Source: Myxococcales bacterium (lineage in GTDB: Bacteria; Myxococcota_A; Polyangia; Polyangiales; Polyangiaceae). Taken from it: a DNA stretch of 24,000 nucleotides. Under the pieces are notes generated by a model. It had not been told where the DNA came from and ran no database searches. It saw only the letters and a program-made list of their open reading frames with translations. This document shows positions 64 to 22,092 of the stretch, piece by piece. The translations under genes were made by a program, and so were the position numbers. The stretch lies in NCBI GenBank assembly GCA_043747615.1, contig JAYTOU010000070.1:1-24000 (forward strand), written 5' to 3'. Each line of letters starts with the position of its first letter. Position 1 is the first letter of the stretch.

Positions 64-701
64 TCAGCTCACCGCCTGGTGTCCCAAAGATGTCCCAACG
101 GGCGCATCAAGGGCTGCCATGAACTCCCGTCCGCCACCGGGCGAGAGGTGCGAATAGCGCATCTTCATCTGGATCGTGGAGTGGCCTAGCCATTCCTGAA
201 CCTGACGGAGAGGCGCCCCCGACATCACGAGCTGACTGGCGAACGAGTGCCGGCAGTCGTGCCATCGGATCTTGCGTAGCCCTGCCCTGCGGCATGCGCC
301 CCAGAGCCTTTCGTGCAGCTGGTAGATGCTGAGGGGCTTCCCGTCCGGGTTGCAGAAGACGCGAGGGCCTCTCAGGTGCTTCAGCTCCTTTAACGCCCGT
401 TCTAGCTCGGGGGTCGTTGGAACCTTTCGATCCTTGCCGCTCTTCGTGGGCCCTACGATGCCCAGCGACGACGAACGGCGAATGATGACCTTCTTGTTAG
501 TGAAATCGAGATCGCCCCACTCAGGGCGATCTGCTCCCCTGCCCTGGCGCCCGTCCGGAACGCGAAGAGCAAGAGCGCTCGTTCCTCGATGTTGCGCGCC
601 GCACTGATCGCCAAGGCCGACTCTTCGCTGTTGAAGAAGTCCGTCTTGGAGTCCGGGGAGTGGGAGATCCTCACGGCGGTGCCGGCCTTTCCGAAACTGA
701 A
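64..701 (-). pseudogene. Tyrosine recombinase (phage-type integrase), N-terminally truncated and frameshifted
   Basis: One minus frame reads EWGDLDFTNKKVII...RWHDCRHSFASQLVMSGAPLRQVQEWLGHSTIQMKMRYSHLSPGG...HQAVS, with stop at 64-66. It carries the HxxR box and the catalytic Tyr context. The upstream part (DFFNSEESALAISAARNIEERALLLFAFRTGARAGEQIAL, with the Arg-I motif) is in another frame, switching near 520-527. Homology stops near 690-705, where MFS coding begins, so the N-terminal core-binding domain is absent. Confidence 0.8.
78..98 (+). repeat. Two direct TGTCCCAA motifs 11 bp apart (candidate recombinase arm-type sites)
   Basis: TGTCCCAA at 80-87 and 91-98, inside the integrase 3' coding end and about 60 bp from the att core. 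Confidence 0.35.
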
Positions 702-2180
702 GGTGCCGAGCAAGAGTTTCACCTCGCCGCGCGCGCCGCCATCCTGTCGTTCATCGTCGTGTTCGGCGTCACCAAAGCGCTCACGAACTACCTCGCGGGC
801 CGGCTCTCGGATGCGTATGGGCGCAAGGTAATCTTGGTCGGCGGCTGGCTCGTGGCGTGCCCGGTGCCGTTTCTCCTCATGTGGGCGCCCTCGTGGAGCT
901 GGGTACTCTTCGCGAACGTGCTGCTCGGCATGAGCCAAGGGCTCACGTGGTCCACGACGGTCATCATGAAGATCGACCTCGCGGGGCCGCAGAAGCGCGG
1001 GCTTGCGATGGGCCTGAACGAGTTCGCCGGTTACTTCGCCGTGGCGATGTCCGCGCTCGCGACCGGGACCATTGCCTCGACGTTCGGCCTTCGCCCGCAG
1101 CCGTTCTATTTGGGCGTCGTCTTCGTCACGTTCGGTCTCTTGCTGTCCCTCGTCCTCGTGCGCGAGACGAAGCACCACGTCCACCACGAGGCGAAGCTCG
1201 AAGGAGCCTTGCCACCAGGCGGCGTGCCTTCGCAGCGGCAAGTTTTCGCGCTTACCTCGGTGCGCGACAAGAACCTGTCGAGCGTGAGCCAGGCAGGGCT
1301 CGTCAACAACCTGAACGACGGCATGGCGTGGGGACTTTTCCCGATCTTCTTCGCCGCCTCCGGCATGAGCCTCGCTCAGATCGGGTGGCTCGCCGCGATC
1401 TATCCCGGCGTGTGGGGAATGGGGCAGCTCTTCACTGGAGCGCTCTCCGACAAGATCGGACGCAAGTGGCTCATCGTGACGGGGATGTGGGTACAGGCGA
1501 TCGGCATCGTCGTGACGGTGCTCTCCAAGATGTTCTTGGACTTCGCCGTGGGCGGTGTGCTCCTCGGCCTGGGGACCGCGATGGTGTACCCGACGCTGCT
1601 CGCCGCGATTGGCGATGTCGCTCACCCAACGTGGCGCGCGTCGACGGTCGGCGTGTACCGGCTCTGGCGCGATCTCGGTTACGCGATCGGCGCTCTGCTC
1701 GCCGGTGTCGTCGCCGATGCGCTCGGGCTCCGCGCCGCGATCTGGGCCATCGCTGCGCTCACCTTCGGCTCGGGACTCGTGGCGGCCTTCCGTATGAAAG
1801 AGACGTTGGGGGCACGGCGGACGGGCGCGAAGCTCGTGCCCGAGCCAGCTTGTATCACGGTGGATGATCTGGACTCGCTCATGGGGAAGCGTGAGGCTGT
1901 GTTCGTCGTCGACGTGCGCTCCCCCGAGGAGTTTGCCGCCGCCCATGTGTCGAGCGCGACGAACATCCCGCTGCAGACGCTCGAAGCGAATGCAGGCACT
2001 CTCCCGCTCGACGCGCTCGTGGTCACGGTTTGCGGCAAGGGTGGCGGGCGGTCCGAGAGCGCCGCCAAGTTGCTCCGCCAACGCGGTTTTCAAACAGCGC
2101 TATCGCTATGCGGCGGGACGAACGCCTGGATGACGGCGCATAGCGAGAAAACGACTGGTCTTCTAACGACGCCACCATGA
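660..2180 (+). CDS. MFS transporter fused to a C-terminal rhodanese domain; appears to lack the first transmembrane helix (5'-truncated)
   Basis: Motif A ([10 protein letters not shown]) follows the first visible TM helix, so that helix is TM2; I count 11 TM segments. The C-terminal ~120 aa are rhodanese-like with the active loop CGKGGGR. Recognisable MFS sequence begins around 705 ([16 protein letters not shown]). The GTG at 660 is only the first in-frame start, and it overlaps integrase remnant sequence. Confidence 0.75.
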
Positions 2181-3192
2181 TCTACCTCGACTACAACGCC
2201 ACGACGCCGCTGCTCCCCGAGGTCATCGCCGCGATGGATCCGTATTTGCGCGAGCATTTCGGCAATCCATCGAGCAGTCATGTCTACGGACAGCGGGCGC
2301 GCGGGGCGATCGATGTCGCGCGGTCTCAAGTCGCGGAGCTCCTCGGCTGCGAGCCCGACGAGGTGATCTTCACGTCGGGCGGGACCGAAGCTAACAACCT
2401 CGCGATTCGCGGGGTCGCCGAAGCGAGCGAAGGGAAGCGCCACATCGTCACCTCGACCATCGAGCACCCGGCGACGGCGGCCCCGTGATCGTGCACGCGA
2501 ACAACGAGACCGGGACGATGCAGCCCATCGCCGAGCTCGCCGGTATCGCACGCGAGCGTGGCTGTCTGGTCCACACGGATGCCGCGCAGTCGGTTGGCAA
2601 GGTGCGGACGAAGGTGCGCGAGCTTGGCGTAGACCTGCTCTCCGTCGCCGGGCACAAACTCTACGCGCCGAAGGGTGTCGGTGCGCTGTACGTACGCAGG
2701 GGAACCCCGCTGCGACCGTTCGTTCTTGGAGCCGGGCACGAGCGCGGTCTGCGGCCGGGCACCGAGAACGTGGCTTCGATCGTCGCTCTTGGAGTCGCCT
2801 GCGAGCTTGCCGGGAAGCGTCTCTCCGTATCGGGCGACGCCGTACGCGCTCTCCGCGATCGACTCTGGGCTCGCCTCCTTGCAGTCGTCCCTGGGCTCGC
2901 GTTGAACGGGCACGAGACCGAGCGACTGCCGAACACGTTGAATGTGCGTTTTCCCGGAGTGACCGGGAGCGCGGTGCTCGGCTCGGCGCCCGAGGTTGCC
3001 GCTTCGACGGGCTCGGCGTGCCACGAGGGCGGTCGCGAGAGGGCTTCGTCGGTGTTGCTCGAGATGGGGCTGCGGCCTGATGAAGCCCTCGGATCCGTCC
3101 GTCTCTCTTTGGGGGTGGCGACGACGACGCAGGACGTGGACGACGCTGCCGACGTGCTCACGCGGGGATGGCGAGCATTGGGATCATCCTAA
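2177..3192 (+). pseudogene. NifS/IscS-family cysteine desulfurase or selenocysteine lyase, disrupted by an internal deletion plus frameshift
   Basis: ORF 2177-2488 (YLDYNATTP...[13 protein letters not shown]...TSTIEHPA) and ORF 2485-3192 (VHANNETGT...SVAGHKLYAPKG with the PLP Lys...STGSACHEG with the active Cys) are in different frames. Compared with E. coli IscS recalled from memory, roughly 40 residues between EH(K/P)A and HxNNE are missing, at about 2470-2490. The ATG at 2177 overlaps the MFS stop (ATGA). Confidence 0.75.
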
Positions 3193-3223: not shown

Positions 3224-4480
3224 TCACTTGCGCAGCGCGCACGTACGAAAGCCGGCCAAGACGTCCCGACGATCCGGTGGGTAGAAGTTGCGCCAGGTAT
3301 TCCGGAGCAGCCGCGCGCGCGTCGCCCAACAACCGCCGCGCAGCACCTTGTGGGGCGTCGCGAACCACGGCTCCGAGTACTCCCGGTAAGGATCGACGAT
3401 GAAGCCCTGATAAGGTCCGAAATCAGTCGCCGTCCACTCCCACGTGTTGCCGATCATCTGTCGGCAGCCGAACGCGCTGTCTCCGGCGGCAAACGCGCCG
3501 ACGTCCACGGGCCCACCGCAGCGGCCATCCAGGTTCGCGTTCGCTTCGGACGGCACGGCCTCACCCCACGGGAAAGGGCGCTTTTCGTCCGTCGACGCAG
3601 CGAGCTCCCACTCCGCCTCCGTCGGCAGTCGGCGCTGTGCCCAACGACAATAGGCTTCCGCCTCGAACCAACACACGTGCACGATCGGCTGGTGCGGCGG
3701 CAGCGGCTCGCGCTTGTCGTAACGGCGCACGTCGAAACCGCCGTCGCCGAGCGGACGCCAGTACACGGGATGGTGTGCGCCGTTTCGCGTGCGCCAGTTC
3801 CACCCGGCATCCGTCCACAGCTCACGCCGAGCGTAGCCCCGTGCCTGGACAAACTTCAGGAACTCCTCGTTGGTGACGGCCGCGCGCGCGATTCGAAACG
3901 TCGGTACGTCGACCGGATGCGCCCACTTCTCGTTGTCGAATACGAACGATTCGCGAGGGGTCGCACCGAGCTGGTACCGGCAACCCCGCACCTCGACGTC
4001 GCCCGGAAGCGCCCCTCCGGCGACGGCGAGCGTAGTGACACCCGCGTGCACGAATGTCGGTGCCGGGTAGGCGAGGGTCTGGCGCGTGTATGTCAAGGCC
4101 TCGTCGTGCATGTCCTCGTGGAACAGCGCGAGTCGATGAAAATAGGGATCTTCAACGTCTCGGTCCGTCTCGCAGCATCGTTCGAAGACCTCGGCCATGT
4201 ACGCGAGGGTGGCCTGACGATCTGGAAGCGTCAGGTCCCAGCGCGTGTCGTGCGGGACGCGAGCGGAGTCGTAGAGCGCGTCCCCATCCGAGCGGATCGG
4301 CGACACACCGCGCGCATGCCGCAGCGCCCATTGTTCTTGGAACCAGGCAACGTGCCCGAGCTCCCAGCGGAGCGGATTGACGATCGCCAGACGGGGCCCG
4401 AGCCATTGCTCGTCGGTGAGGTCGAGCGCCAGGCCAAGCGTCCGCGCCCGCGAGTCCTTCAGGTCATCGATAATTCCCAT
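3224..4480 (-). CDS. senA: EgtB-like sulfoxide/selenoxide synthase (DinB-like plus FGE-sulfatase-type domains); candidate selenoneine synthase SenA
   Basis: N-terminal DinB-like part carries the three-His iron site (WELGHVAWFQE; FHEDMHDE). The C-terminal part is FGE-sulfatase-like (GNTWEWT, RGGCWAT). The SenA call rests on context with SenB-like and SelD genes. I prefer the ATG at 4480 (MGIIDDL) over the GTG at 4507, which would leave 5 bp to the senB start. Confidence 0.75.
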   Translation of the reverse strand: MGIIDDLKDSRARTLGLALDLTDEQWLGPRLAIVNPLRWELGHVAWFQEQWALRHARGVSPIRSDGDALYDSARVPHDTRWDLTLPDRQATLAYMAEVFERCCETDRDVEDPYFHRLALFHEDMHDEALTYTRQTLAYPAPTFVHAGVTTLAVAGGALPGDVEVRGCRYQLGATPRESFVFDNEKWAHPVDVPTFRIARAAVTNEEFLKFVQARGYARRELWTDAGWNWRTRNGAHHPVYWRPLGDGGFDVRRYDKREPLPPHQPIVHVCWFEAEAYCRWAQRRLPTEAEWELAASTDEKRPFPWGEAVPSEANANLDGRCGGPVDVGAFAAGDSAFGCRQMIGNTWEWTATDFGPYQGFIVDPYREYSEPWFATPHKVLRGGCWATRARLLRNTWRNFYPPDRRDVLAGFRTCALRK

Positions 4481-4512
4481 GCGACGCTCTCGCAATCTAC
4501 ACTCCACCGCGC

Positions 4513-5514
4513 ATGAATGTCGTCTTCGTATGCAAGGCCCCGCGGGGCTCGCGCCTGGGGAACCGCATCACCGCGCTTCGCTGGAAGAAGCTGGTGGAGG
4601 AGCTCGGACACCGCGTGGTGATCACCTCGTCCCTCCCCCGCGGCCCGTACGACGTCCTCGTCGCACTGCATGCCCGTCTCGCGGCGGGCGCCGTCGCGTG
4701 GTCGCGCGCGAACCACGCCTCGCGCCCCATCGTCGTCGCCTTGACCGGAACGGACCTCTATCGCGACATTCACCACGACGCCGAGGCGAAGGAATCGCTC
4801 GCGCTCGCGGATCGTCTCATCGTCTTGCACGAGCTTGCGCCTCTCGACGTCCCAAGGCCCTTCCGAAGCAAGACGCGCGTCATTCGTCAATCGGCGCCGC
4901 CCGCGCCACGCCAAACGTCTGGCGGCGCAAAAGAGCGCGACGCCTTCGAGGTCGCATTCGTCGCCCACCTGCGCGCCGAGAAGGATCCCATGCGCGTTGC
5001 CGCCGCCGTTCGCTTGCTGCCGGCGGCGTCGCGCGTGCGCGTTCGGCATGTCGGCCGCGCGCTCAGCGAAGAACTGGACCGGCAGGCAACGAAGGAGACG
5101 AAAACGAACGCGCGGTACGCTTGGCTCGGCGAGGTCTCCCCGGCGCGCGCCCGCCACCTGATCGCGCGGTCGCACGTGCTCGTCCTCACGAGCATCATGG
5201 AGGGCGGGGCGAACGTCCTCGGCGAGGCAATCGTCGCCGGAACACCGCCGATCACGTCGCGCATCCCCGCCGCCGTCGCGGCGCTCGGCGCGAAGTACCC
5301 TGGTTTTTTCCCGGTTGGCGACACGCGAGCGCTCGCGCGCATGCTGTCGCGCGCGGAACGCGAACCTGCGTTCCTCGCCGAGCTACGGCGGCAGACCCGC
5401 GCCCGCCGCCATCTCTTCACGGCGAAGGCGGAGAGAAGCGCATGGCGTTCGCTGCTCGAAGAGCTCGCGCCGCCCGCTCGGGCGCGACGCGGCGAACCTC
5501 ACCCGATAGGATGA
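4513..5514 (+). CDS. senB: GT-B-type glycosyltransferase; candidate selenosugar synthase SenB
   Basis: 333 aa with a C-terminal GT4-like nucleotide-sugar binding stretch (LTSIMEGGANVLGEAIVAGTPPITSRIP). It is divergent from and adjacent to the EgtB-like gene, with SelD nearby. Assignment is by context and fold-level resemblance; no search was run. Confidence 0.65.
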   Translation: MNVVFVCKAPRGSRLGNRITALRWKKLVEELGHRVVITSSLPRGPYDVLVALHARLAAGAVAWSRANHASRPIVVALTGTDLYRDIHHDAEAKESLALADRLIVLHELAPLDVPRPFRSKTRVIRQSAPPAPRQTSGGAKERDAFEVAFVAHLRAEKDPMRVAAAVRLLPAASRVRVRHVGRALSEELDRQATKETKTNARYAWLGEVSPARARHLIARSHVLVLTSIMEGGANVLGEAIVAGTPPITSRIPAAVAALGAKYPGFFPVGDTRALARMLSRAEREPAFLAELRRQTRARRHLFTAKAERSAWRSLLEELAPPARARRGEPHPIG

Positions 5515-5518
5515 TGAG

Positions 5519-6898
5519 ATGAGCAAGCACTACGACGCAATCGTCATCGGCACAGGTCAGGCAGGTCCGTCGCTCGCCGTACGTCTGGCAAGCGCGGGAC
5601 GAAAGACCGCGATCCTCGAGCGAAAGCGGTTCGGCGGCACATGCGTCAACGTCGGGTGCATCCCCAGCAAGACCTTGATCGCCAGCGCGCGCACCGCTCA
5701 TGTCGCCAGGCGCGCCGCGGACTACGGCGTGATCGTCGAAGGCGGGGTCACTGTCGACATGAAACGCGTGAAGGCGCGCAAGGACGCTGTGGTCCAGCGG
5801 TCGAACGAGGGCGTCACGCGCTGGCTCCGGAATACGGCGAACCTCACGGTGATCGAGGGGCACGGCCGATTCGAAGGCCCCCACGTCATCCGCGTGAACG
5901 ACGACGTCCTCGAGGCCCCTCAGGTCTTCATCAACGTCGGTGCGCGCCCGATGGTGCCCGACCTTCCGGGGCTCGACGGGGTGCCGTTTCTCACGAGCTC
6001 CTCGATCATGGATGTCGACTTCGTCCCCGAGCATCTGATCATCATCGGAGGCAGCTACATCGGCCTCGAGTTTGCTCAGATGTATCGCCGCTTCGGCAGT
6101 CGAGTGACGGTGATCGAGAAGGGACCGCGGATCGCGGCGCGCGAGGACGAGGACGTTTCAACCGAGATCAAGAGTATTCTCGAGGCCGAAGAGATCGCGT
6201 TCAAGTTGAACGCGCAGTGCTTGAAGTTCGGCCGGCGCGGAGACGGGGTGGTCGTGTCGGTGAGCTGCGACGGAACGCTCGACGAGATCGCGGGCTCGCA
6301 TCTCCTCGTAGCCGTTGGGCGGGTGCCAAACACCGCCGACCTTGGGCTCGACGCCGCGGACGTCGCCGTGGATGCGCACGGCTTCGTCGTCGTCGACGAC
6401 GAGCTCCGCACGAGCGTCCCCGGGGTATGGGCCCTCGGAGACGCGAACGGTCGCGGCGCGTTCACGCACACGTCTTACAACGACTATGAGATCGTCGCCG
6501 CGAACTTGCTCGATGGTGGCTCACGCCGCGTGAGTGATCGCATCCCGGCCTACGCGCTCTTCGTCGACCCGCCGCTCGGCCGCGCAGGGCTGACCGAGCG
6601 CGACGTGCGCGCCTCCGGCCAGAAAGCGCTGATCGGGAAGATGATGATGGCGCGCGTCGGTCGGGCGCAGGAGCGCGGCGAGACTCTGGGCTTCATGAAA
6701 GTGATCGTCGACGCAGAGAGCCGCAAGATCCTGGGCGCGTCCCTACTCGGGATCGAAGCGGACGAGGTCATCCACGCGCTCCTCGACGTGATGTACGCTG
6801 GCGGCACCTGCGACCTCATCACGCGGGCAATGCACATCCATCCGACGGTCTCGGAGCTGATCCCGACCCTACTCGGCGATCTGAAGCCGCTGGAGTGA
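5519..6898 (+). CDS. Class I FAD-dependent pyridine nucleotide-disulfide oxidoreductase (mercuric/glutathione/lipoamide reductase-like)
   Basis: GTGQAG dinucleotide-binding motif, redox-active GGTCVNVGCIPSK, second Rossmann motif IIGGSYIGLEFA, and C-terminal HPTVSE His-Glu dyad. It has no C-terminal Cys pair and no N-terminal metal-binding domain, so it is not a bona fide MerA. It starts 4 nt after the senB stop, with AGGA 7 nt upstream. Confidence 0.85.
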   Translation: MSKHYDAIVIGTGQAGPSLAVRLASAGRKTAILERKRFGGTCVNVGCIPSKTLIASARTAHVARRAADYGVIVEGGVTVDMKRVKARKDAVVQRSNEGVTRWLRNTANLTVIEGHGRFEGPHVIRVNDDVLEAPQVFINVGARPMVPDLPGLDGVPFLTSSSIMDVDFVPEHLIIIGGSYIGLEFAQMYRRFGSRVTVIEKGPRIAAREDEDVSTEIKSILEAEEIAFKLNAQCLKFGRRGDGVVVSVSCDGTLDEIAGSHLLVAVGRVPNTADLGLDAADVAVDAHGFVVVDDELRTSVPGVWALGDANGRGAFTHTSYNDYEIVAANLLDGGSRRVSDRIPAYALFVDPPLGRAGLTERDVRASGQKALIGKMMMARVGRAQERGETLGFMKVIVDAESRKILGASLLGIEADEVIHALLDVMYAGGTCDLITRAMHIHPTVSELIPTLLGDLKPLE

Positions 6899-6906
6899 TC
6901 GAAATT

Positions 6907-7950
6907 TCAGCGATCGACCACGTGGATGTGGCCGACGCGCCCGGCGGCGAGCGTTCCGATGATCGCCGCGCAGGGTGTTCCGCGGGAGCGCAGCTCGCCA
7001 ATGAGCTTGTCCGCCTCGTCGGGCGAGACGGCGATCAGCAAACCGCCTGAAGTCTGAGCATCGCTGAGGACGAGCTGCGACTCCTTGTCGATCCCGGTCG
7101 CGTACTCGACCGAGTCGCTCAGGAAGCGCCAGTTTGCGTGGGTGCCCCCCGGCGCGATCCCTTCGCGGACATAGGTCCAGGCCGCGTCGATCACGGGCAC
7201 GTCCTCGAGGCGCACGGTCGCGCTGCATCCGCTCGCCCTGACGATGTTGCGCAGGTGGCCGAGGAGACCGAAACCGGTGATGTCGGTGCAGGCGTGCACG
7301 GACACCGTGGCCATCGCCTCTGCTGCCGCGCGGTTCAGCATGCTCATGAGACGGATCGCCTCGCCGATGGCGTGCGCAGCATCGCGATCTTGCTTTGCCG
7401 CGGTGGTCACGATTCCAATGCCGATCGGCTTCGTGAGGACGAGGACGTCACCCGGAAGACCACCGGCGTTCGAGGCGATCTTCTTGGGATGCACCATGCC
7501 GGTCACTGCGAGCCCGTAGATGGGTTCGTCGGTCTTGATCGTGTGACCACCGACGATGTCGATCCCGGCCTCCCGTGCCTTCTCCGCGCCGCCGCGCAAA
7601 ATCTCGCCGAGCACCGACACGTCGAGCTCGGATTCCGGGAAGCCGACGAGGTTGAGCGCGGCGATGGGCCAGCCGCCCATGGCGTAAACGTCGCTGAGCG
7701 CGTTCGCCGCGGCCACTGCCCCGAACTCGTACGGATCGTCCACGACGGGCGTGAAGAAATCCGTGGTCAAGACGAGAGCTCGCTCGTCATCGATGCGATA
7801 GACCGCGGCGTCATCGCCGGTCGCGCTCCCGACGAGCACGTTCGGATCGGTGACGGGCGGTAGTCTGCTGAGCAGCGGAAAGAGGTAGCCGGGCGGATGT
7901 TTTGCGGCGCAACCAGCGCGCTTGGCAATCTGCGTGAGGCGAACGGACAT
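6907..7950 (-). CDS. selD: Selenide, water dikinase (selenophosphate synthetase), Cys-type; SenC role in a sen cluster
   Basis: N-terminal glycine-rich loop AGCAAK, with the Cys encoded by TGC rather than TGA. AIR-synthase-like core (DDAAVY, DFFTP, GGHTI, TDITGFGLLGH). AGGAGA Shine-Dalgarno sequence 5-6 nt upstream of the ATG. Confidence 0.9.
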   Translation of the reverse strand: MSVRLTQIAKRAGCAAKHPPGYLFPLLSRLPPVTDPNVLVGSATGDDAAVYRIDDERALVLTTDFFTPVVDDPYEFGAVAAANALSDVYAMGGWPIAALNLVGFPESELDVSVLGEILRGGAEKAREAGIDIVGGHTIKTDEPIYGLAVTGMVHPKKIASNAGGLPGDVLVLTKPIGIGIVTTAAKQDRDAAHAIGEAIRLMSMLNRAAAEAMATVSVHACTDITGFGLLGHLRNIVRASGCSATVRLEDVPVIDAAWTYVREGIAPGGTHANWRFLSDSVEYATGIDKESQLVLSDAQTSGGLLIAVSPDEADKLIGELRSRGTPCAAIIGTLAAGRVGHIHVVDR

Positions 7951-7977
7951 CGCATTCTCCTGTGGGTGATCAGTAAG

Positions 7978-9018
7978 TCATGCCATGGACGCGAGGCCAG
8001 CAGCGGTCGCTACGAGCCAGACGCCAAGGGCCAAGGCCACGGCGACGCGAGGCCGTGACTCGCGTGCGAGGACGAAGAGAGAGGGCAGGTTCACGATCGG
8101 CCCCGCGACCACGAACGCAACGGCGACGCCGATCGGCGCGCCCGCGGCGAGCAGCAGGAGCGCGACCGGGACTTCGAAGAACGTGGGCAGAGCAACGAGC
8201 ATTCCGATGAGAGCGACCACGGTGATCGCGAAGACCGTACCTCCACGCGTGAGCATGGCGACGTGCGGAAGAAGAAGGCCTGAAACGAGCACGCCGGCGA
8301 TGATGAGCGGCACGGTCACGACGGTGAGGTACCCAACGCTCCTCGCGAAGCGGACGAGCAGGGCGCCGAGCGTCATGTCCTCGTCGGCATCGACCTCGCA
8401 CGCGACGCTGCGCGCGGGTGACACGTCTTTCTCCATGGCCCGGCCGATGCCCGCAGAGAGCCCGAGAACGATGACGAGCGCCGCCACGACGCGAACCGCA
8501 GCGACCCGCACGGGGAGGAGCGCGAAGCTCAACACGATGGCGGCGATGTTCAGGCCGGGCGACGCCAACATGACTGCGAGTGAAGGACCGAGGCGCGCAC
8601 CGCGCTCGTAGAGGCCCGTGAAGACCGGGGTGACACAGCAACAGCACAACATGAGCGGCGCGCCTGCGAGCGCCCCCATGATCGTCGGCCGCCCTCCGCG
8701 TGCCCCGAGCCAGCGCTTCACCCATGACGAGGGAACCGCCGCGCGAACCGCTGCGCCGACGAGGATCCCGAAGACGAGCGCTGGCCAGATTTTACCGAAG
8801 TAGAACAGCGTCGTTGCCACGACGCCTCCGTCAACGAGCGCCGACGTTGAAACGCCCAGCTTTCCGGACTCACGTACGCGCCCGAGCACGCGCAGCGAGC
8901 CGCCCCATTTGTAATAAAAGAGTGCCGACACGATCATCGCGAGGATGAAAGCGCCGCCGAATTGCGTGCGCGCGGAGCCTCCGGATTTGCCCGCCATTGC
9001 AGCCGAGGTCGTCGTCAT
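7978..9018 (-). CDS. Polytopic permease of the DUF318/ArsP-type predicted-permease family with a CCCC motif
   Basis: About 10 hydrophobic helices in two halves, split by an acidic loop (EVDADEDM). The motif GAPLMLCCCCVTPVF sits where family members carry a vicinal Cys pair before a Pro. It ends 27 bp upstream of the selD start on the same strand. Start is uncertain: ATG 9018, ATG 8997 or TTG 9054. Confidence 0.7.
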   Translation of the reverse strand: MTTTSAAMAGKSGGSARTQFGGAFILAMIVSALFYYKWGGSLRVLGRVRESGKLGVSTSALVDGGVVATTLFYFGKIWPALVFGILVGAAVRAAVPSSWVKRWLGARGGRPTIMGALAGAPLMLCCCCVTPVFTGLYERGARLGPSLAVMLASPGLNIAAIVLSFALLPVRVAAVRVVAALVIVLGLSAGIGRAMEKDVSPARSVACEVDADEDMTLGALLVRFARSVGYLTVVTVPLIIAGVLVSGLLLPHVAMLTRGGTVFAITVVALIGMLVALPTFFEVPVALLLLAAGAPIGVAVAFVVAGPIVNLPSLFVLARESRPRVAVALALGVWLVATAAGLASMA

Positions 9019-9103
9019 CACCGGAAGATGAGCTTGTCTCGCTTCGCGACGCAACCGCTGTCTGGCGGGCTCGCTCCGATTCGGCCGCGCTCGGGCGAGC
9101 GCG

Positions 9104-10048
9104 TTAGACCGCGCGCGACGGCTGCATCCAGGGCTTCGAAAGGTATCGGTCCCATGAGTCGGGCAATAGCGTCACGACAGGACCAGTAATGCCGTCCCGC
9201 GCTGCGATCCTGAGCGCGACAACGACCGCGGTCCCCGCCGAGCCGCCGACGAAGAGCCCCTCTTCGCGAACGAGGCGATGGACCATCGCGAAGCTATCGG
9301 TGTCAGAAACGCTTTCGGCGCTGTCGATCACGCTGCGGTCGAGGATCGCGGGTGGCTTGCTCGTGCCGATTCCTTCGACCTCATAGGCGGCGTCGGGGCC
9401 AACGATCCCATCCGCGGCCCACCGAGCGAGACCAGAGCCGACGGGGTCCGCAAGGACGATTTGGACGTTCAGTACGTGACGTTTCAGGAACCGGCCAACC
9501 CCGGTGATGGTGCCCCCCGTGCCGGCTCCAGCGACGAACGCTCCGATCCGAGCGCCCGTCTGTTCGAGGAGCTCGGGGCCCGTGGTCTCCTCGTGGGCGC
9601 GGACGTTCACGGGATTGCGGAACTGGTCGGTGAGGAACCACCCCTCTTCATCTGCGAGGCGACGGGCAACGTTCTGGAAATTCTCAGGACTATCCGGCGG
9701 CGCGTTCGGAGTGATCACGACGCGCGCGCCGAGGGCCGTAAGCGCAGCTCGTTTGTCGACGGACATTTTCTCCGGCAGTACGCAAACGAGCTTGTAGCCT
9801 CGCACGGCGGCGACGAGCGCGAGCCCCATTCCCGTGTTTCCGGCCGTCGCCTCGATCAGGGTCGCGCCGGGCTTCAGGAGATTGCGTCGTTCGGCATCGT
9901 CGACGATGGCGAGGGCGATCCGGTCTTTCACGCTTCCTCCCGGATTTAGATGCTCGCACTTCACGAGGATCGAAACCGGGAGGCCATGCCCGATGTGTCG
10001 CAGCCGCACGAGCGGCGTGTGCCCAATGTGATCGAGAATCGTCGACAT
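9104..10048 (-). CDS. PLP-dependent cysteine synthase / cystathionine beta-synthase family enzyme (CysK/CysM-like)
   Basis: IGHTPLVRL; NPGGSVKDR with the PLP Lys; GNTGMGLA; GAGTGGTITG phosphate-binding loop. It lies first on the minus strand before the permease and selD. The ATG at 10048 is preferred; the ORF extends to a TTG at 10096. Confidence 0.85.
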   Translation of the reverse strand: MSTILDHIGHTPLVRLRHIGHGLPVSILVKCEHLNPGGSVKDRIALAIVDDAERRNLLKPGATLIEATAGNTGMGLALVAAVRGYKLVCVLPEKMSVDKRAALTALGARVVITPNAPPDSPENFQNVARRLADEEGWFLTDQFRNPVNVRAHEETTGPELLEQTGARIGAFVAGAGTGGTITGVGRFLKRHVLNVQIVLADPVGSGLARWAADGIVGPDAAYEVEGIGTSKPPAILDRSVIDSAESVSDTDSFAMVHRLVREEGLFVGGSAGTAVVVALRIAARDGITGPVVTLLPDSWDRYLSKPWMQPSRAV

Positions 10049-10294
10049 TGGGCGGAGCTTAGCTTGCCGCGACGCGACTGGAGGGCTCGTCGTCAAGGAG
10101 GCGTCGCAGAAAAGCGCTATGGAGAAGGACCATCGCGACCATCCCGAAATAACGCGACGGGGTCCTCTGGAAATCCGCGTCGTTCTGTACCTGCTCGCGG
10201 TTCCTTGGGAGGGCCGTCGCGACGGCGTCGCCGTCTACCCTCGAACGTTGGAATGCCGATCCCGTTTACCGTCCCCAATGGTATGTGACGAGCA

Positions 10295-11270
10295 ATGGCG
10301 TCGCGCACGATCCGCCCGAACCTCGCGAAGCTCTCGGGCTCGGTGGCCTACCGCGCGATCCTCGGCGAGGTCAGCGCGCTGCTCGAAAGCGCACGGCGAG
10401 CGGCCGCCCGCGCGGTGAACACCGTCATGACGACCACGTACTGGGAAATCGGTCGCCGGCTCGTTGAGCACGAGCAGCGCGGGAGGGCGCGGGCCGCGTA
10501 CGGCGCTGCGCTCCTGCGCCGGCTATCGAAGGATCTGGCAGGACGCTTCGGTCGCGGATTCTCGGAGCGCAACCTCGAACAGATGCAGCGCTTCTACCTG
10601 ACGTGGCCCATTTCGCAGACGCTGTCTTCGAAATTCCAGGAAGGACCGGCACTCGCGCCGCGATCCAAGATTTCGCAGACGCTGTCTGCGAAGTCCCAAG
10701 ACCACATTGCGCCAAGCTTCCCTCTGCCGTGGTCCCACTATGTTCGCCTCCTCGCTGTCAGGAACGAGAACGCCCGGGCGTTCTACGAGTACGAGGCTCT
10801 CCGCGGTGGTTGGACGGCCCGCCAGCTCGACCGACATCTCAAAGCTCGAGACGTTCCTACTTGAGCTCGGCGGCGATTTCACCTTCGTTGGTCGCCAGCG
10901 CCGATTGCGCGTCGGAGATGAGTGGTTTCGGATCGACCTGCTTTTCTTTCACCGGCGCCTGCGATGCCTCGTGGTGATCGACCTCAAGCTGGGGAAGTTC
11001 AGCCACGCCGACGCGGGCCAGATGCACCTATACTTGAACTACGCCCGGGAGCACTGGATGGTGTCCGGCGAGAATCCTCCGGTCGGGATCATCCTCTGCG
11101 CCGAGAAGGACGAGGCGGTCGTCCGATACGCGCTCGAAGGCTTACCCAACAAGGTGCTGGCTGCGGCGTATCGGACAACGTTGCCTGCAGAAGAAGTTCT
11201 CGCCGCCCAGCTTCGAAAATCCGCGAGGCTCCTGACAACCCGGACTCCACGCCGCTCGACACCCCGCTGA
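10295..11270 (+). pseudogene. DUF1016/YhcG-type PDDEXK nuclease, split by an internal deletion and frameshift
   Basis: ORF 10295-10864 has the N-terminal domain (YWEIGRRLVEHEQ, GFSERNLEQMQRFY, WSHYVRLL). A second frame up to 11270 has the nuclease core (FLLELGGDFTFVGRQRRLRVGDEWFRIDLLFFHRRLRCLVVIDLKLGKF). The junction is near 10830-10845. Tens of residues normally between the two parts appear to be missing. Confidence 0.7.
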
Positions 11271-12595: not shown

Positions 12596-12904
12596 GTGAC
12601 CTCGAAGCTGGATCGCCGCGCCGAGCAGCTGAGTGCCCTGGGCCACTCCGTTCGGCTCAAGATCCTCCGATTCGTCGTGCAAGCGGGCGTCGAAGGCTCC
12701 GCAGCGGGCGACATCCAGGCTCACGTCGAGCTGCCAGCGTCCACGTTGAGTCATCACCTGAAGCGGCTGGTCGACGCCGGGGTGCTCTCCACCCGATCCG
12801 AGGGAACCTTCCACTTCTACGCCGCCGACTACACCGCCCTCCGCGCTCTCACCGACTACCTTTGGGAAGACTGCTGCAAGCGCGGCAAGTCCGGCTGCTG
12901 CTGA
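12596..12904 (+). CDS. arsR: ArsR/SmtB-family metalloregulator with C-terminal cysteine pairs
   Basis: Winged-helix signature LSALGHSVRLKILRFV...ELPASTLSHHLKRLVDAGVL. It lacks the CVC site in helix 3 and has C-terminal CC-x6-CC (EDCCKRGKSGCC). The GTG at 12596 is the first possible start after in-frame stops. Confidence 0.85.
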   Translation: MTSKLDRRAEQLSALGHSVRLKILRFVVQAGVEGSAAGDIQAHVELPASTLSHHLKRLVDAGVLSTRSEGTFHFYAADYTALRALTDYLWEDCCKRGKSGCC

Positions 12905-12920
12905 GCAAAGCCTTTTTTTT
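12893..12920 (+). terminator. Possible weak terminator/attenuator between arsR and arsM
   Basis: GGCTGCT..AGC-AA-AGCC imperfect stem overlapping the arsR stop, followed by a T8 run (12913-12920). Judged by eye only. Confidence 0.3.
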
Positions 12921-12976
12921 GCGCTTAATGTTCGAGTATTTTGGAAGTAGTTAACCCCACACACGAGGAGTCGATC

Positions 12977-13894
12977 ATGAAGAACCCTAGCGTTCAAAAA
13001 TCCGAGAAGACCTGCTGCGCCCCAAGCTGCTGCGAGGGCGACAACGCCGCGGCGAAGGCCGAGACCGCAAAGGTCGACGACGCCGTTCGTGAGACGGTCA
13101 AGGAGCGCTACGGCCAGGCGGTCGCGGCAGTCATGAAAGGCTCGAAGCCTTCGTGCTGTGGGTCGTCTGCAGCGCCGGGCATCCGCGGCACGGACCCGAT
13201 CACGCGCAACCTCTACGACGCGGAGCAGGCGGGCGGCGTGCCCGATGACGCCTTGCTCGCCTCCTTCGGCTGCGGCAACCCCACCGCCCTCGCCAATCTG
13301 AACCCCGGCGAGACCGTGCTCGACCTCGGCTCAGGGGGCGGCATCGACGTGCTTCTGTCGGCCAAGCGGGTCGGCCCCACCGGCAAGGCGTACGGGCTCG
13401 ACATGACCGACGAGATGCTCGACCTCGCCATGAAGAACAAGGCGAAGGCGGGCGCGGCGAACGTGGAGTTCTTGAAAGGACACATCGAGGCAATCCCGCT
13501 ACCGGCCGCCTCGGTGGACGTGATCATCTCCAACTGCGTCATCAACCTCTCCACCGACAAGGACAAGGTGCTCGGCGAAGCCTTCCGCGTGCTGCGCTCG
13601 GGGGGTAGGTTCGCCGTCTCCGACATCGTGGTTCGCCGCGAGCTTCCCGAACCGGTGAGGAAGTCGATGGAGCTGTGGAGCGGGTGCATCGCAGGGGCGC
13701 TTCTGGAAAAGGAGTACGTCGCCAAGTTGAAGGCCGCCGGGTTCATCGACATCGAGGTCGAGCCGACCCGCATCTATACGAAGGAGGACACCGCGGAGAT
13801 GACGTCGTCCTGCTGCGGCGAAGAGGCCGAGACGGCCCTCGAGGCCCTGGACGGCGCCGTCATGAGCGCCTTCATCCGCGCGACGAAGCCATGA
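12977..13894 (+). CDS. arsM: Arsenite S-adenosylmethionine methyltransferase
   Basis: SAM motif [12 protein letters not shown]. Conserved Cys contexts FGCGNP, SNCVINL and WSGCIAGA, plus an N-terminal Cys-rich stretch (CCAPSCC, PSCCG). GAGGAG Shine-Dalgarno sequence upstream of the ATG at 12977. Confidence 0.9.
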
Positions 13895-14907
13895 GCACGC
13901 GCACCAAGGTCGGCATCAACGGGTTCGGCCGTATGGGTCGGCTCGCGCTTCGAGCGGCATGGCGTTGGCCCGACTTCGAGTTCGTCCACATCAACGAGCT
14001 GAAGGGCGGGCCCAAAGTCGGCGCGCATCTCCTCGCGTTCGACTCGGTGCACGGTCGATGGGACCAAGAGGTCGTCACCGCGGCGGACGCCATCGCCATC
14101 GCGGGGAAGGCCATCCCCTTCACCGGATACGCCACGCCGGCAGAGGTGCCGTGGAAGGAGCACGGGGTCGAGATCGTCCTCGAGTGCTCTGGGAAGTTCA
14201 GGACCCCGGCGCTCATCGCTCCCTACTTCGCGGTCGGAGTGAAGAAGGTCATCGTCGCCGCCCCCGTCAAGGAGGGCGCGCTCAACGTCGTCGTCGGGGT
14301 GAACGATCACCTCTACGACCCGGAGAAGCACCACTTGCTCACGGCGGCTTCCTGCACGACCAACTGCCTTGCTCCCGTGGTGAAGGTCATTCACGAGGGC
14401 ATCGGCATCCGCCACGGTGTGATCACCACCATCCACGACATGACGAACACCCAGACGGTCGTTGATGCGCCCCACGAGGATCTTCGGCGAGCACGGGCCA
14501 GCAGCCTCTCCCTCATTCCGACGAGCACCGGGTCGGCGACGGCGATCTCGTTGATCTACCCCGAGCTGAAGGGAAAGTTGAACGGCCTCGCCGTGCGGGT
14601 GCCCCTCTTGAATGCGTCGCTCACCGATTGCGTCTTCGAGGTCTCTCGGCCGACGACGACGGACGAAGTGAACGCGCTCCTCAAGACTGCCGCGGAGGGG
14701 CCGCTGAAGGGCATCCTGGGCTATGAAGAGCGCCCGCTGGTTTCGGTGGACTACAAGGACGATACGCGATCGGCGATCATCGACGCCCCATCGACCATGG
14801 TGGTGGACGACACGAGCGTGAAGATCCTCGCCTGGTATGACAACGAGATCGGCTACGTGCACCGCATGATGGAGCTCGCCCGCACGGTTGCCCAGAGCCT
14901 TCGGTGA
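13891..14907 (+). CDS. Glyceraldehyde-3-phosphate dehydrogenase (ars-operon type, partner of ArsJ)
   Basis: [12 protein letters not shown]-binding motif and active site SCTTNCLAP. The start overlaps the arsM stop (ATGA). Confidence 0.9.
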
Positions 14908-16160
14908 GCTCGTTGAGCGCCATCCGCAACTACAGCCTCGTGACCGCCGCCTACTGGGCGTTCACGTTGACGGACGGCGCGCTGCGGATGCTCGTCCTCT
15001 TGCATTTCCACGAGCTGGGCTACACGCCGGTCCAGCTCGCGTTCCTGTTTCTCTTCTACGAGCTCTTCGGCGTCGTCACCAACTTGCTGGGCGGCTGGAT
15101 CGCCTCGCGGATGGGTCTGCGTGTGACTCTCCTTGGCGGGCTCGCCCTCCAGGTGGTCTCGCTCGTGCTCCTCGGCATGGTGAACCCTGCGTGGCCGAAG
15201 CTCACGTCCGTCGGCTACGTCATGAGCGCCCAGTCGCTTTCGGGCATCGCCAAGGACCTCACGAAGATGAGCGCCAAGAGCACGACCAAGCTCCTGGTAC
15301 CCGAAACCAACGAGTCGTCGCTCTTCAAATGGGTGGCAATCCTCACGGGCTCGAAGAACGCGCTCAAGGGCGTGGGATTTTTTCTTGGCGGTCTCCTGCT
15401 CACGGCATGGGGCTACCGGCACGCGCTCTTCGGGATGGCCGCGGCTCTCTTCATCGTCCTCGCCGGCTCCTTCTTTTCCCTCCCGCGCGGGCTGGGGAAG
15501 TCGAAGTCCAAGAGTAAATTTAAGGGGCTTCTGTCGAAGACGCGCGAGGTGAACATCCTCTCGGCTGCGCGGTTCTTCCTCTTCGGCGCGAGGGACATCT
15601 GGTTCGTCGTTGGCGTGCCCGTCTTCTTGTCAGAGAACCTCGGCTGGGGGTTCGCCGAGATCGGCACCTTCCTAGCTGTCTGGGTGATTGGGTATGGGGT
15701 CATCCAGTCGGGCGCCCCGCTCCTCATTGGCCGGTGGACCGGTGGCCGAGCGCCCCAAGGGCGAACCGCCCAGGTCCTCGCCTTCGTCCTCGCGGGCGTC
15801 ACAGCGATCGTCGCCGCCGGGATCGTCGCGGGCTACGCGCCGGTAGTCGTCATCCTGGTCGGCCTGGGCATCTTCGGCGCCGTCTTCGCGGTCAACTCCT
15901 CCGTCCACTCGTACTTGATCCTTGCGTACTCGGACGGAGACAAGGTGGCGACGAACGTGGGCTTCTATTACATGGCCAACGCCGGGGGCCGCCTCGTAGG
16001 GACGCTTCTGTCGGGCGTGATGTTTCAAGTTGCCGGGGTCACGGGTTGCCTATGGACCTCGGTGGCGTTCGCAGCGATGGCGGGGGTTGTCTCTCTCGGC
16101 CTGCCGAAGAAGGAGTCCTCGACGTTGATGACGGAGATGAAAACCGAGGGGGCGGATTGA
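14904..16160 (+). CDS. arsJ: MFS permease ArsJ (organoarsenical efflux; 1-arseno-3-phosphoglycerate exporter)
   Basis: ArsJ-like N-terminus ([37 protein letters not shown]) and a 12-TM MFS layout. The GTG start overlaps the gapdh stop (GTGA). Confidence 0.85.
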
Positions 16161-18870: not shown

Positions 18871-18877
18871 GAACCCC

Positions 18878-19849: not shown

Positions 19850-19946
19850 GGCCACGCGATGAGTCACCGCGATGAGCCAATGGTTCGCACAGACGAGCCT
19901 GCAATAGTCCCTGCGAGCTGCTAGATTCAATTCGGGGCGCTGGCCG

Positions 19947-21896: not shown

Positions 21897-22092
21897 AACG
21901 AAACCGTCGCTGCGTTGCGGCCTCGCACGAGCTCGTCTGAAAGTGACCCGAAGAGACGCACCGCGCCTGACCGAGGTCGAGGATGAGCAGATTGGGGGCC
22001 CATGTAATCGCGCCTCCTCAGGTTGACGTTAGGGTCGTTGCGCGTAGGGTGCTCGGTCCTGGGACGGCAGCACGTCGCAGCAGGAGCTGCGA

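Follow-up and report, generated by a model that had tools for sequence, protein, structure and literature searches.

A PF03773 permease clade with a C-S-C-C motif, encoded beside selD and selenoneine genes, as a candidate selenium transporter

Known relatives and the permease locus

The selenoneine (sen) pathway has, to our knowledge, no characterised transporter. An earlier, preliminary description of the locus considered here stated that no transporter had been assigned to this pathway at all, which is roughly right, except that a 'putative selenate transporter' has been noted near many sen clusters, recurrently co-localised with senABC (Kayrouz et al. preprint, 10.1101/2022.04.13.486033), its family being named neither in the text nor in the supplement of that preprint. 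More generally, a 2026 review knows of no specific high-affinity selenium transport system in prokaryotes (PMC13188914). The YedE/YeeE (TsuA) proteins of PF04143 are predicted selenium-related and thiosulfate transporters with conserved cysteines and a genomic tie to SelD (PMC5322559). In another family, PF03773 (ArsP_1), ArsP of Campylobacter jejuni and its ars-operon homologues carry out organoarsenical efflux, and have a two-repeat membrane architecture and a conserved transmembrane cysteine motif; all surveyed ars-operon ArsPs have C(S/T)C, directly preceded by LAV (cluster 1) or tPF (cluster 2) (PMC4435449). The nearest curated models of the same superfamily are those of the SO_0444-family Cu/Zn efflux proteins (NF033936) and of SaoE (NF040736). 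Some SO_0444 members carry selenocysteine in place of the first motif cysteine (U-x-C), which points to the motif as the functional site.

The permease gene described here lies in a 24,000-nucleotide stretch of a Myxococcales contig (the window), as the middle gene of an apparent operon ending in selD (Table 1). Its product matches PF03773 well above the cut-off (E 8.5e-31, 107.6 bits against 32.3; profile positions 11-291 of 294), in agreement with its initial naming as an ArsP_1/DUF318-type permease. With ArsP it shares the Pfam family, the place of the cysteine motif and probably the two-repeat architecture; the residues before the motif, however, are P-L-M-L in the window and in the whole clade, not LAV or tPF, the motif itself is C-S-C-C (C-C-C-C in the window), and the neighbours are selD, senA and senB rather than an ars operon. 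Enterobacterial YraQ/UPF0718 proteins are 27-32% identical to it over nearly the full length, and share the three-cysteine C[ST]CC-x-x-P and the second-repeat P-T-x-x-E-[IV]-P. The third cysteine straight after C-x-C and the P-T-x-x-E of repeat 2, both present in the permease, mark the YraQ-like C-x-C-C branch. While yraQ has a housekeeping neighbourhood (yhbO-yhbP-yraQ-dolP-diaA), the clade of the permease is found with selenium genes and has its own signature, GxPLMLCSCCx[TA]P ... ALPTFFE[IV]P ... AGPx[VI]NLPSL, of which PLMLCSCC, ALPTFFE and AGPxVNLPSL set it apart from YraQ. Judged by sequence, the permease is a member of a distinct clade within PF03773 (ArsP_1/UPF0718, YraQ-like). With 80.5 bits against a cut-off of 300 for SO_0444 and 73.7 against 325 for SaoE, it belongs to neither of these families, and the motif type of the SO_0444 part of the family, CSC[GS], also differs. 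The likeness to YedE/YeeE is one of analogy only: these proteins belong to another Pfam family with no detectable sequence relationship to the permease, and a Pfam search gave no PF04143 match.

The gene had initially been placed at 7978-9054; an open reading frame of that extent does exist (minus strand, 358 aa, TTG start at 9054), but homologues, including the 96%-identical P0001, start at the position equivalent to ATG 9018 (MTTTSA...), making the shorter form the likely gene. Its TGA stop (7980-7978) precedes the ATG of selD at 7950 by 27 bp on the same strand, as had been described. A scan of 6700-10500 gave no promoter and no terminator between the cysK-like, permease and selD genes, and neither an Rfam nor a tRNA scan of the window gave a match. 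The senA, senB and selD genes of the window all pass the NCBIfam equivalog cut-offs in this one locus. The NifS-like, CysK-like, rhodanese and disulfide reductase neighbours fit selenium mobilisation; the CysK-like gene recurs near the permease or sen genes elsewhere (L001, L039, L087, L102), and a homologue of the FAD oxidoreductase precedes senA in many Acidobacteriota loci.

Table 1. Features of the window discussed in the text.
Feature	Coordinates	Strand	Remarks
MFS transporter with C-terminal rhodanese domain	660-2180	plus	another membrane protein encoded at the locus
NifS-like cysteine desulfurase / selenocysteine-lyase-type gene	2180-3192	plus	disrupted in the window by a frame change near 2485, ~40 residues missing
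senA, selenoneine synthase	3224-4507	minus	NF041186, 488.6 bits (cut-off 420)
senB, selenosugar synthase	4513-5514	plus	TIGR04348, 351.7 bits (cut-off 300)
FAD pyridine-nucleotide-disulfide oxidoreductase	5519-6898	plus	start 4 nt after senB
selD/senC, selenide water dikinase, Cys form (...AGCAAK...)	6907-7950	minus	ATG 7950; TIGR00476, 392.3 bits (cut-off 125)
Spacer, permease stop to selD start	7951-7977	minus	27 nt; AGGAG at 7961-7957
Permease (PF03773 ArsP_1, YraQ/UPF0718-like branch)	7978-9018	minus	likely gene; 346 aa; start ATG 9018
P278-T-F-F-E282, probable second-repeat counterpart of the Cys motif	8173-8187	minus	in loop just before helix 282-291 (model)
Four Cys codons, TGC TGT TGC TGT	8635-8646 (read 8646-8635)	minus	residues 125-128 of the 346-aa form; codon 126 is TGT, 8643-8641
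CysK/CBS-like PLP enzyme	9104-10096	minus	opens the apparent cysK-like - permease - selD operon

The cysteine motif and its probable second-repeat counterpart

The feature that first drew attention to this permease, a run of four cysteines followed by a proline, is indeed present as LMLCCCCVTP (LMLCCCCVTPVF), with codons 8646-8635 and the proline at residue 131, and it sits at the conserved transmembrane cysteine motif of the family, where ars-operon ArsPs have C(S/T)C. The importance then attached to the run, and its reading as a doubled thiol pair and a specialisation, did not survive comparison with the family. All 120 of the 120 nearest homologues (47-96% identity), the 96%-identical one among them, have CSCC. 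Among ~135-137 family representatives we counted CSCC in 75, CTCC in 28, CSCG in 10, CSCS in 9, CACC in 5 and CCCC in 2, the window included, so that CSCC or CTCC accounts for 103 of ~137, and CSCC and CTCC also occur in members lacking a selenium context, enterobacterial YraQ among them. Both the alignment of the clade (A1) and one with Enterobacter, Klebsiella and Caballeronia proteins (A2) show C125 and C127 without variation, while position 2 of the motif accepts S, T, A and C in the census of representatives; it is this middle residue of C-x-C that is cysteine in the permease where the family has serine or threonine. The serine codon at position 126 is TCN in all of 79 homologous genes. 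The run is not a matter of chance composition, being the family motif C-S-C-C plus one substitution, and by these sequence comparisons Ser126Cys is a private, isosteric, single-nucleotide change of the window (one transversion, TCN to TGT); four cysteines are not a feature of the group, whose norm is the three of C-S-C-C. The family assignment and the private nature of the CCCC run we consider nearly certain.

The second CCCC variant in the census, L095, is unrelated and independent, and lies on a 2.3-kb contig without a sen or selD gene. A scan for PLMLCCCCx[TSAP]P over 241 million metagenome records, which was not exhaustive since it missed L095, returned no other permease with CCCC; its single match was a chance one, in a shadow frame of a pyrophosphatase gene. 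One might suppose that the run doubles the thiol pair adaptively, altering substrate or affinity: it is genuinely there, it has arisen a second time independently, and thiol-driven selenite reduction has, from general chemistry, a stoichiometry of four thiols. Such an adaptation is most improbable, however, given the absence of the run from the 96%-identical and all other near homologues, the empty if incomplete metagenome scan, the tolerance of position 2 and the short contig of L095 with no selenium gene on it.

The AlphaFold2 model of the permease (pLDDT 82.6, pTM 0.84) has ~11 helical segments in a symmetric pattern, and places the cysteine motif at a helix break, with helix 110-122 before and helix 126-138 after it. 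In sequence, the two-halved architecture is weakly visible; hhalign of the N-terminal against the C-terminal half gives E 0.059 over 57 columns, with the CxCC region aligned to the PTFFE region. The conserved P-T-F-F-E would be the second-repeat match of the C-S-C-C helix break, and P278, F280 and E282 reach at least 95% conservation among selenium-linked and unlinked members alike. A PDB sequence search with the family profile gave no match at E up to 1. Foldseek of the model against the PDB gave nothing significant, the best matches being bile-acid symporters and KefC (E 0.6, TM ~0.15), and we therefore claim no fold analogy.

Gene neighbourhood of the clade

The linkage to selenium genes, in contrast to the CCCC run, is conserved well beyond the window. 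Among 79 clade loci, all on MAG or metagenome contigs and obtained by a genome scan baited with the cysteine motif itself, 37 have selD, senA or senB in the fetched flanks of the permease, 28 of them within 400 nt. The linked loci span Myxococcota, Acidobacteriota, Verrucomicrobiota and Planctomycetota, their senA, senB and selD genes pass the NCBIfam equivalog cut-offs, and the linked members are scattered over the whole clade tree. At least six gene orders are found, often with spacers of less than 50 nt: cysK-like-perm-selD in the window, perm-selD/senB/senA (L087, L098), senA-selD-perm (L004), senA-senB-perm with or without a preceding FAD oxidoreductase gene (Pyrinomonadaceae), perm-senA-senB (L049, L054, L057, L079) and senA-senB-x-perm (L030, labelled Verrucomicrobia). 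A recurrence of this kind, in so many arrangements and several phyla, is hard to explain without functional coupling, and we regard coupling of the permease to SelD-dependent selenium metabolism as probable.

The neighbouring selenium genes differ from locus to locus. In ~30 Acidobacteriota loci the permease gene directly follows senA-senB, with selD not within 10 kb. Conversely, selD stands beside the permease without sen genes in four loci. L015, from Planctomycetota, has a bare perm-selD pair 10 nt apart with unrelated flanks, the catalytic Cys/Sec codon of its selD being an in-frame TGA (selenocysteine); in L018 selD and the permease gene form a divergent pair; L013, a myxobacterial MAG labelled Archangium, has an operon MT-selD-rSAM-perm-...-DUF2064-GT2 without senA or senB; and L097 combines permease, selD and a radical SAM gene, again without senA or senB. 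Another 16 loci have the permease beside the radical-SAM/DUF2064/glycosyltransferase set only. We note that this second selD-linked set (radical SAM, DUF2064, glycosyltransferases, DoxX) may encode an unknown selenometabolite.

The association is not universal in either direction. Nine clade loci have no selenium gene in flanks of 5 kb or more on either side, and the permease is absent from seven inspected sen clusters, four of them related myxobacterial ones and three on proteobacterial plasmids, the latter three having no PF03773 gene; it is therefore dispensable for the sen pathway. In support of the carrier proposed below, the related clusters that lack the permease have other pairings of a membrane protein with rhodanese, either with an MFS protein or as a fusion to a DedA-type VTT domain. 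Against it, the MFS-rhodanese protein of the window could be the real selenium entry route. Comparison within the clade found no residues discriminating selenium-linked from unlinked members, so that the substrate is probably the same clade-wide and not specific to a sen product. The C-x-C-C site is also present in members with a housekeeping context (the P0114 subclade, P0053, enterobacterial YraQ), and the clade may therefore have a general thiophilic substrate, for instance a sulfur species or a metal, in place of selenium.

Possible functions of the permease clade

Because it adjoins genes for selenium activation and selenoneine synthesis in several bacterial phyla, the clade is, on sequence and gene context, a credible candidate selenium transporter. 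Nothing relevant came out of literature searches on the function of yraQ or on UPF0718, DUF318 or YraQ together with selenium, and we found no paper describing a link between this permease clade and selenium genes. We propose that the permease may be a secondary carrier, the thiol-lined central site of which would bind a thiophilic selenium species, perhaps selenide, or a form derived from selenite and resembling a selenotrisulfide or perselenide, and that it would carry this species through the inner membrane for use by SelD, most likely inward. The imported selenium would then be handed to SelD and to delivery proteins of CysK-like, NifS-like and rhodanese type, all encoded around the permease. 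As a whole, a thiol-lined secondary carrier for SelD-dependent selenium metabolism, with direction and substrate read from context, is the best explanation we can offer, although a tentative one that we would put somewhat below an even chance; uptake of a selenium species specifically is a shade more doubtful still.

Direction is the obvious point of dispute, the characterised or curated relatives (ArsP, and by their names SO_0444 and SaoE) all being exporters. The permease might accordingly act like ArsP or SO_0444 as a valve, for efflux or homeostasis, of surplus selenide or methylselenol, or of Cu, Zn, Hg or As(III), co-expressed with the selenium genes for protection. ArsP, after all, exports MAs(III), C(S/T)C is common to all ars-operon ArsPs, the nearest NCBIfam models are efflux transporters, U-x-C can stand at the motif in SO_0444 members, metal RND/CusB efflux genes flank several loci, and ArsM/UbiE-type methyltransferases lie near many clade members. 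However, the tight coupling to selD (spacers of 10-27 nt) would then set an exporter of selenide beside an enzyme that consumes it, the scores against the two models (80 against 300, 74 against 325) are far below the equivalog cut-offs, and the association is with biosynthetic genes, not with resistance operons. We consider such a valve unlikely.

Export could instead concern the product of the pathway, selenoneine or the SenB selenosugar being secreted with the cysteines touching the selenol transiently. The Acidobacteriota loci with the permease right after senA-senB and no selD nearby would suit this, as would the exporting habit of known family members and the lack of an assigned exporter in the pathway. 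The same clade, however, pairs with selD alone (L015, L018) and occurs with the radical-SAM/glycosyltransferase set without senA or senB (the SelD-linked L013 and L097, and the 16 set-only loci), sen-linked and unlinked members show no residue differences, and selenoneine, a bulky betaine, does not resemble the small thiophilic compounds that the family transports; a product exporter is in our judgment quite unlikely. We hold the same opinion of a general YraQ-like housekeeping permease with a non-selenium substrate such as a sulfur compound, collected into islands that gather sulfur- or thiol-handling genes. In its favor, members with housekeeping neighbours have an identical core site, C[ST]CC is found in enterobacterial YraQ too, and the CysK-like, NifS-like, rhodanese and DoxX neighbours can just as well be counted as sulfur enzymes, but the adjacency to selD, senA or senB in so many gene orders and phyla, at such short distances, speaks against it.

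Finally, the permease is very improbably an ArsP proper, an organoarsenical efflux permease that goes with the window's own ars island (ArsR, ArsM, GAPDH, ArsJ; 12.6-16.2 kb): the Pfam family is the same, the island is 3.5 kb away, ArsM-like genes adjoin the permease in L014 and L039, with an ars island near some members, and the DUF2064 neighbour matches TIGR04282, 'arsenosugar biosynthesis glycosyltransferase', yet the permease is on the strand opposite to the ars genes, in its own operon with selD and beyond a split nuclease gene, its closest relative with a long contig (85% identical) has retained the perm-selD pair but has ars genes nowhere within 10 kb, the motif is preceded by LML instead of LAV or tPF, and its form is the CxCC of YraQ, not CxC[GS].

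Returning to the carrier that we favor, its broadest form would make the C-S-C-C clade a dedicated prokaryotic selenium carrier feeding a thiol-reactive selenium species to SelD, common to at least three SelD-dependent uses, namely selenoneine, selenoproteins (the Sec-SelD pair) and the radical-SAM/DUF2064/glycosyltransferase pathway. We regard this extension as rather unlikely at present; if true, the last of these pathways may make a new selenometabolite. Recognition of the CCCC run as a private mutation removes a false lead, and the clade, embedded as it is among selD and senAB genes in different phyla, is a concrete candidate selenium transporter, one that could aid engineered selenoneine production.

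The permease gene and its cysteine motif

The product of the gene directly upstream of selD matches Pfam PF03773 ArsP_1 (E 8.5e-31), and its sequence places it in this family and in the YraQ-like C-x-C-C branch, within a group with the signature PLMLCSCC and ALPTFFE that is here called the clade. The preliminary description had reported its reading frame, 27 bp ahead of selD on the same strand, and this is borne out by the frame itself, by the permease stop (7980-7978) and by the selD ATG (7950), with an AGGAG at 7961-7957 in the gap. We take the gene to be shorter than the maximal frame because homologues, one of them 96% identical, begin at ATG 9018. A sequence scan found no terminator-like sites between the cysK-like gene, the permease and selD.

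In an AlphaFold2 model (24 sequences, pLDDT 82.6, pTM 0.84), the Cys motif lies at the break between helices 110-122 and 126-138. The two halves of the protein share weak sequence similarity, and this weak alignment (hhalign E 0.059) sets P278-T-F-F-E282 of the second half opposite the Cys motif. In the predicted arrangement, the three conserved thiols lie where a helix is interrupted, opposite a second interruption, in repeat 2, that contains conserved Thr and Glu. Neither a PDB sequence search with the family profile nor Foldseek with the model found a solved structure for the family.

The four-cysteine run described earlier is present; its reading as a special trait, a doubled thiol pair, did not hold up. 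PLMLCSCC occurs in all 120 nearest homologues (47-96% identity, from a 5.8-billion-protein collection). When CCCC was compared with other motifs, as the same description had proposed, CSCC was the commonest (75) among the best 150 of 3629 relatives (54 at E ≤ 1e-30) retrieved by searching 1.84 billion cluster representatives exhaustively with HMMER, followed in the same 150 by CTCC (28), CSCG (10), CSCS (9), CACC (5), C[VA]NC (5) and CCCC (2). One CCCC case is the window protein, the other an unrelated fragment on a 2.3-kb metagenome contig, L095, whose gene is truncated by the contig end and followed by a cytochrome-c-like gene; no selenium genes are visible on that contig. No further permease with the run came to light when 241 million metagenome records, a collection that is not exhaustive, were scanned with a degenerate DNA pattern. 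Motif position 2 Ser is a TCN codon without exception in 79 homologous genes, and the window TGT is reachable from TCN by one C-to-G change. The survey and the codons therefore identify the doubled pair as a private, isosteric and probably near-neutral substitution in a motif that by alignment is C-x-C family-wide and C-x-C-C in this branch. The CCCC run behind the finding is ordinary.

Features of the window and of comparison loci (L numbers)
Feature	Position	Strand	Remarks
MFS transporter with C-terminal rhodanese domain	660-2180	+	
NifS-like cysteine desulfurase gene, broken	2180-3192	+	frame change, ~40 residues missing
senA (selenoneine synthase)	3224-4507	-	NF041186, 488.6 bits vs 420
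senB (selenosugar synthase)	4513-5514	+	TIGR04348, 351.7 bits vs 300
FAD pyridine-nucleotide-disulfide oxidoreductase	5519-6898	+	NF004992, 758 bits; GGTCVNVGC redox motif; 4 nt after senB
selD (selenide water dikinase)	6907-7950	-	TIGR00476, 392.3 bits vs 125
Permease, maximal ORF	7978-9054	-	
Permease gene as adopted	7978-9018	-	346 aa from ATG 9018, start as in homologues
Four Cys codons	8646-8635	-	TGC TGT TGC TGT, within LMLCCCCVTPVF
CysK/CBS-like PLP enzyme gene	9104-10096	-	first of cysK-like-permease-selD
DUF1016 N-terminal domain and YhcG PDDEXK nuclease domain	10295-11270	+	overlapping ORFs 10295-10864 and 10707-11270
ars island: ArsR, ArsM, GAPDH, ArsJ-like MFS	12596-16160	+	opposite to permease
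Two adjacent aldo/keto reductases, then two hybrid histidine kinases with receiver domains	17821-23643	+	
Independent CCCC variant of the clade	L095:83-748		GAPLMLCCCCAAPLF; 44% identical to window protein
UbiE/ArsM-like methyltransferase	L001:9803-10792		also L041, L050, L062, L071, L056, L061, L076
Two-piece senA	L087:13116-13830		74 aa DinB_2 and 168 aa FGE-sulfatase; also L088, L089
selD of L015	L015:10980-12017		in-frame TGA 11022-11024 at catalytic Cys/Sec position (…SCGG-U-ASK…)
Same-strand array of L013	L013:7106-17648		methyltransferase-selD-rSAM-permease-...-DUF2079-epimerase-...-DUF2064-GT2

Selenium genes in the window and beside related permeases

By its profile matches, the sen cluster in the window is complete. 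The FAD oxidoreductase may be a reductase of selenium or disulfide/diselenide species; in L101 and in numerous Pyrinomonadaceae loci, senA is preceded by a homologue. MFS and rhodanese also occur near sen genes on a Hydrogenophaga plasmid and in L039, L062, L087 and L102, encoded separately or accompanied by an MBL-fold protein and a regulator of the ArsR-rhodanese type. The NifS-like gene, with residues 3-103 in one frame (2180-2485) and 143-371 in another (2488-3177), has decayed into a pseudogene or else was misassembled. Between the selenium genes and the ars island, the split DUF1016/YhcG gene is probably a frameshifted nuclease. The island's ArsM matches NF008823 (352 bits) and its ArsR has a Cys-rich C-terminal tail; a GAPDH-MFS pair of this kind has been described in arsenate resistance through export of 1-arseno-3-phosphoglycerate. 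Nothing visible links the aldo/keto reductases and kinases, which are ordinary, to the permease.

Scanning 185,579 species, each represented by a single genome, with the clade's own motifs gave 80 loci, all MAGs; the motif being the bait, these inform on context and not on motif frequency. Neighbours were identified by tblastn with the window proteins, simple ORF calling, ORF clustering and a few HMM scans; every comparator is a contig from a MAG or metagenome and keeps the taxon label under which it was deposited. Within the fetched flanks, whose extent bounds these counts and any call of 'unlinked', selD, senA or senB accompany the permease in 37/79 loci, 28 of them at ≤400 nt. A second recurrent gene set stands alone beside it in 16 and is also present in 13 of the 37 linked loci; 9 have neither, although each side extends for 5 kb or more, and the flanks of 17 are too short for judgement. 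Linked members are scattered over the whole clade tree, and the gene order varies: permease-selD with senB and senA (L087, L098), senA-selD-permease (L004), senA-senB-permease, in some cases after the FAD oxidoreductase (Pyrinomonadaceae), permease-senA-senB (L049, L054, L057, L079) and senA-senB-x-permease (L030, labelled Verrucomicrobia). The 85%-identical L087, the closest relative on a long contig, keeps permease-selD with a 22-nt spacer and has senB, split senA, MFS, MBL-fold, ArsR-rhodanese, NifS-like and PALP genes; no ars island is present at its locus. Its sen cluster may be decaying, with permease-selD intact. A SAM methyltransferase of ~280-330 aa, UbiE/ArsM-like, is found repeatedly next to senA or as the gene immediately upstream of the permease, and is possibly a selenium methyltransferase.

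Co-occurrence with selD apart from sen genes, a check proposed earlier, was found in three loci that tie the permease to selD itself. In L015 (Planctomycetota), with unrelated flanks, selD begins 10 nt past the permease stop and its product, from the in-frame TGA, presumably contains selenocysteine; in L018 the two genes are paired divergently; and L013, a MAG labelled Archangium, carries both in one array. The second set comprises DUF2064 (TIGR04282, 167 vs 134 bits), GT87-like, GT2, methyltransferase, radical SAM/SPASM and DoxX genes, and around L013 also an NAD epimerase, its membrane protein being GT87- or DUF2079-like. Found next to the permease in L013, L002, L097 and 16 Acidobacteriota loci (e.g. 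L022, L033, L060, L076), it is a candidate second SelD-dependent pathway that may produce a new selenometabolite.

Proposed function and its alternatives

Linkage to selD and senAB is tight and recurrent among the 79 loci, and we believe it likely that the permease is coupled to SelD-dependent selenium metabolism. The direction of transport is a more tentative matter. We lean, with considerable reservation, towards uptake of a selenium species: a secondary carrier would bind a thiophilic selenium species at a thiol-lined central site and act upstream of SelD. Uptake is favoured because linkage reaches selD alone and two different SelD-dependent gene sets, because the core site is constant whatever the context, and because the CysK-like, NifS-like and rhodanese proteins encoded nearby belong to types for which selenium delivery to SelD has been proposed. 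All characterised or curated relatives are exporters, which counts against uptake and for an efflux or homeostasis carrier; an exporter beside SelD, a selenide consumer, would however be an odd pairing, and we consider this reading unlikely. The MFS-rhodanese protein of the same locus could instead be the selenium entry route. Export of the pathway product seems improbable to us, and we would give equally little credence to a housekeeping function unrelated to selenium, although some members (the P0114 subclade and homologue P0053) have housekeeping contexts and no residues telling linked from unlinked clade members were found. That the permease is a true ArsP is very improbable: ArsP sensu stricto is encoded in ars operons, and the window permease stands in none and differs in the residues flanking its motif. 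All ars-operon ArsPs have C(S/T)C (PMC4435449); in enterobacterial YraQ and in a Caballeronia homologue, 27-32% identical to the window permease, the motif is C[ST]CC. Membership in the SO_0444 and SaoE equivalogs was rejected (80 and 74 bits vs cut-offs 300 and 325).

For 15 of the 35 close SenB homologues whose contigs reach 10 kb or more, the contig also bears one of the listed permease homologues, as judged by identically sized contigs in both homologue lists, plus L001. No permease lies within 8 kb of senB in four inspected contigs of the remaining set, nor in three proteobacterial plasmid sen clusters inspected; the clusters without it encode MFS and rhodanese proteins (Hydrogenophaga, L102) or, in L100, a fusion of rhodanese with a DedA-type VTT domain. 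This makes the permease an accessory component, restricted to certain lineages and outside the sen core. The earlier view that the sen pathway has no assigned transporter stands in that literature searches found no paper connecting PF03773/UPF0718 permeases with selenium, and needs amending in that the sen discovery preprint (Kayrouz et al., 10.1101/2022.04.13.486033) mentions only a 'putative selenate transporter', family unstated. According to a 2026 review, prokaryotes have no known specific high-affinity selenium transporter (PMC13188914). The permease family itself is known; the functional association reported here is new and apparently undescribed.
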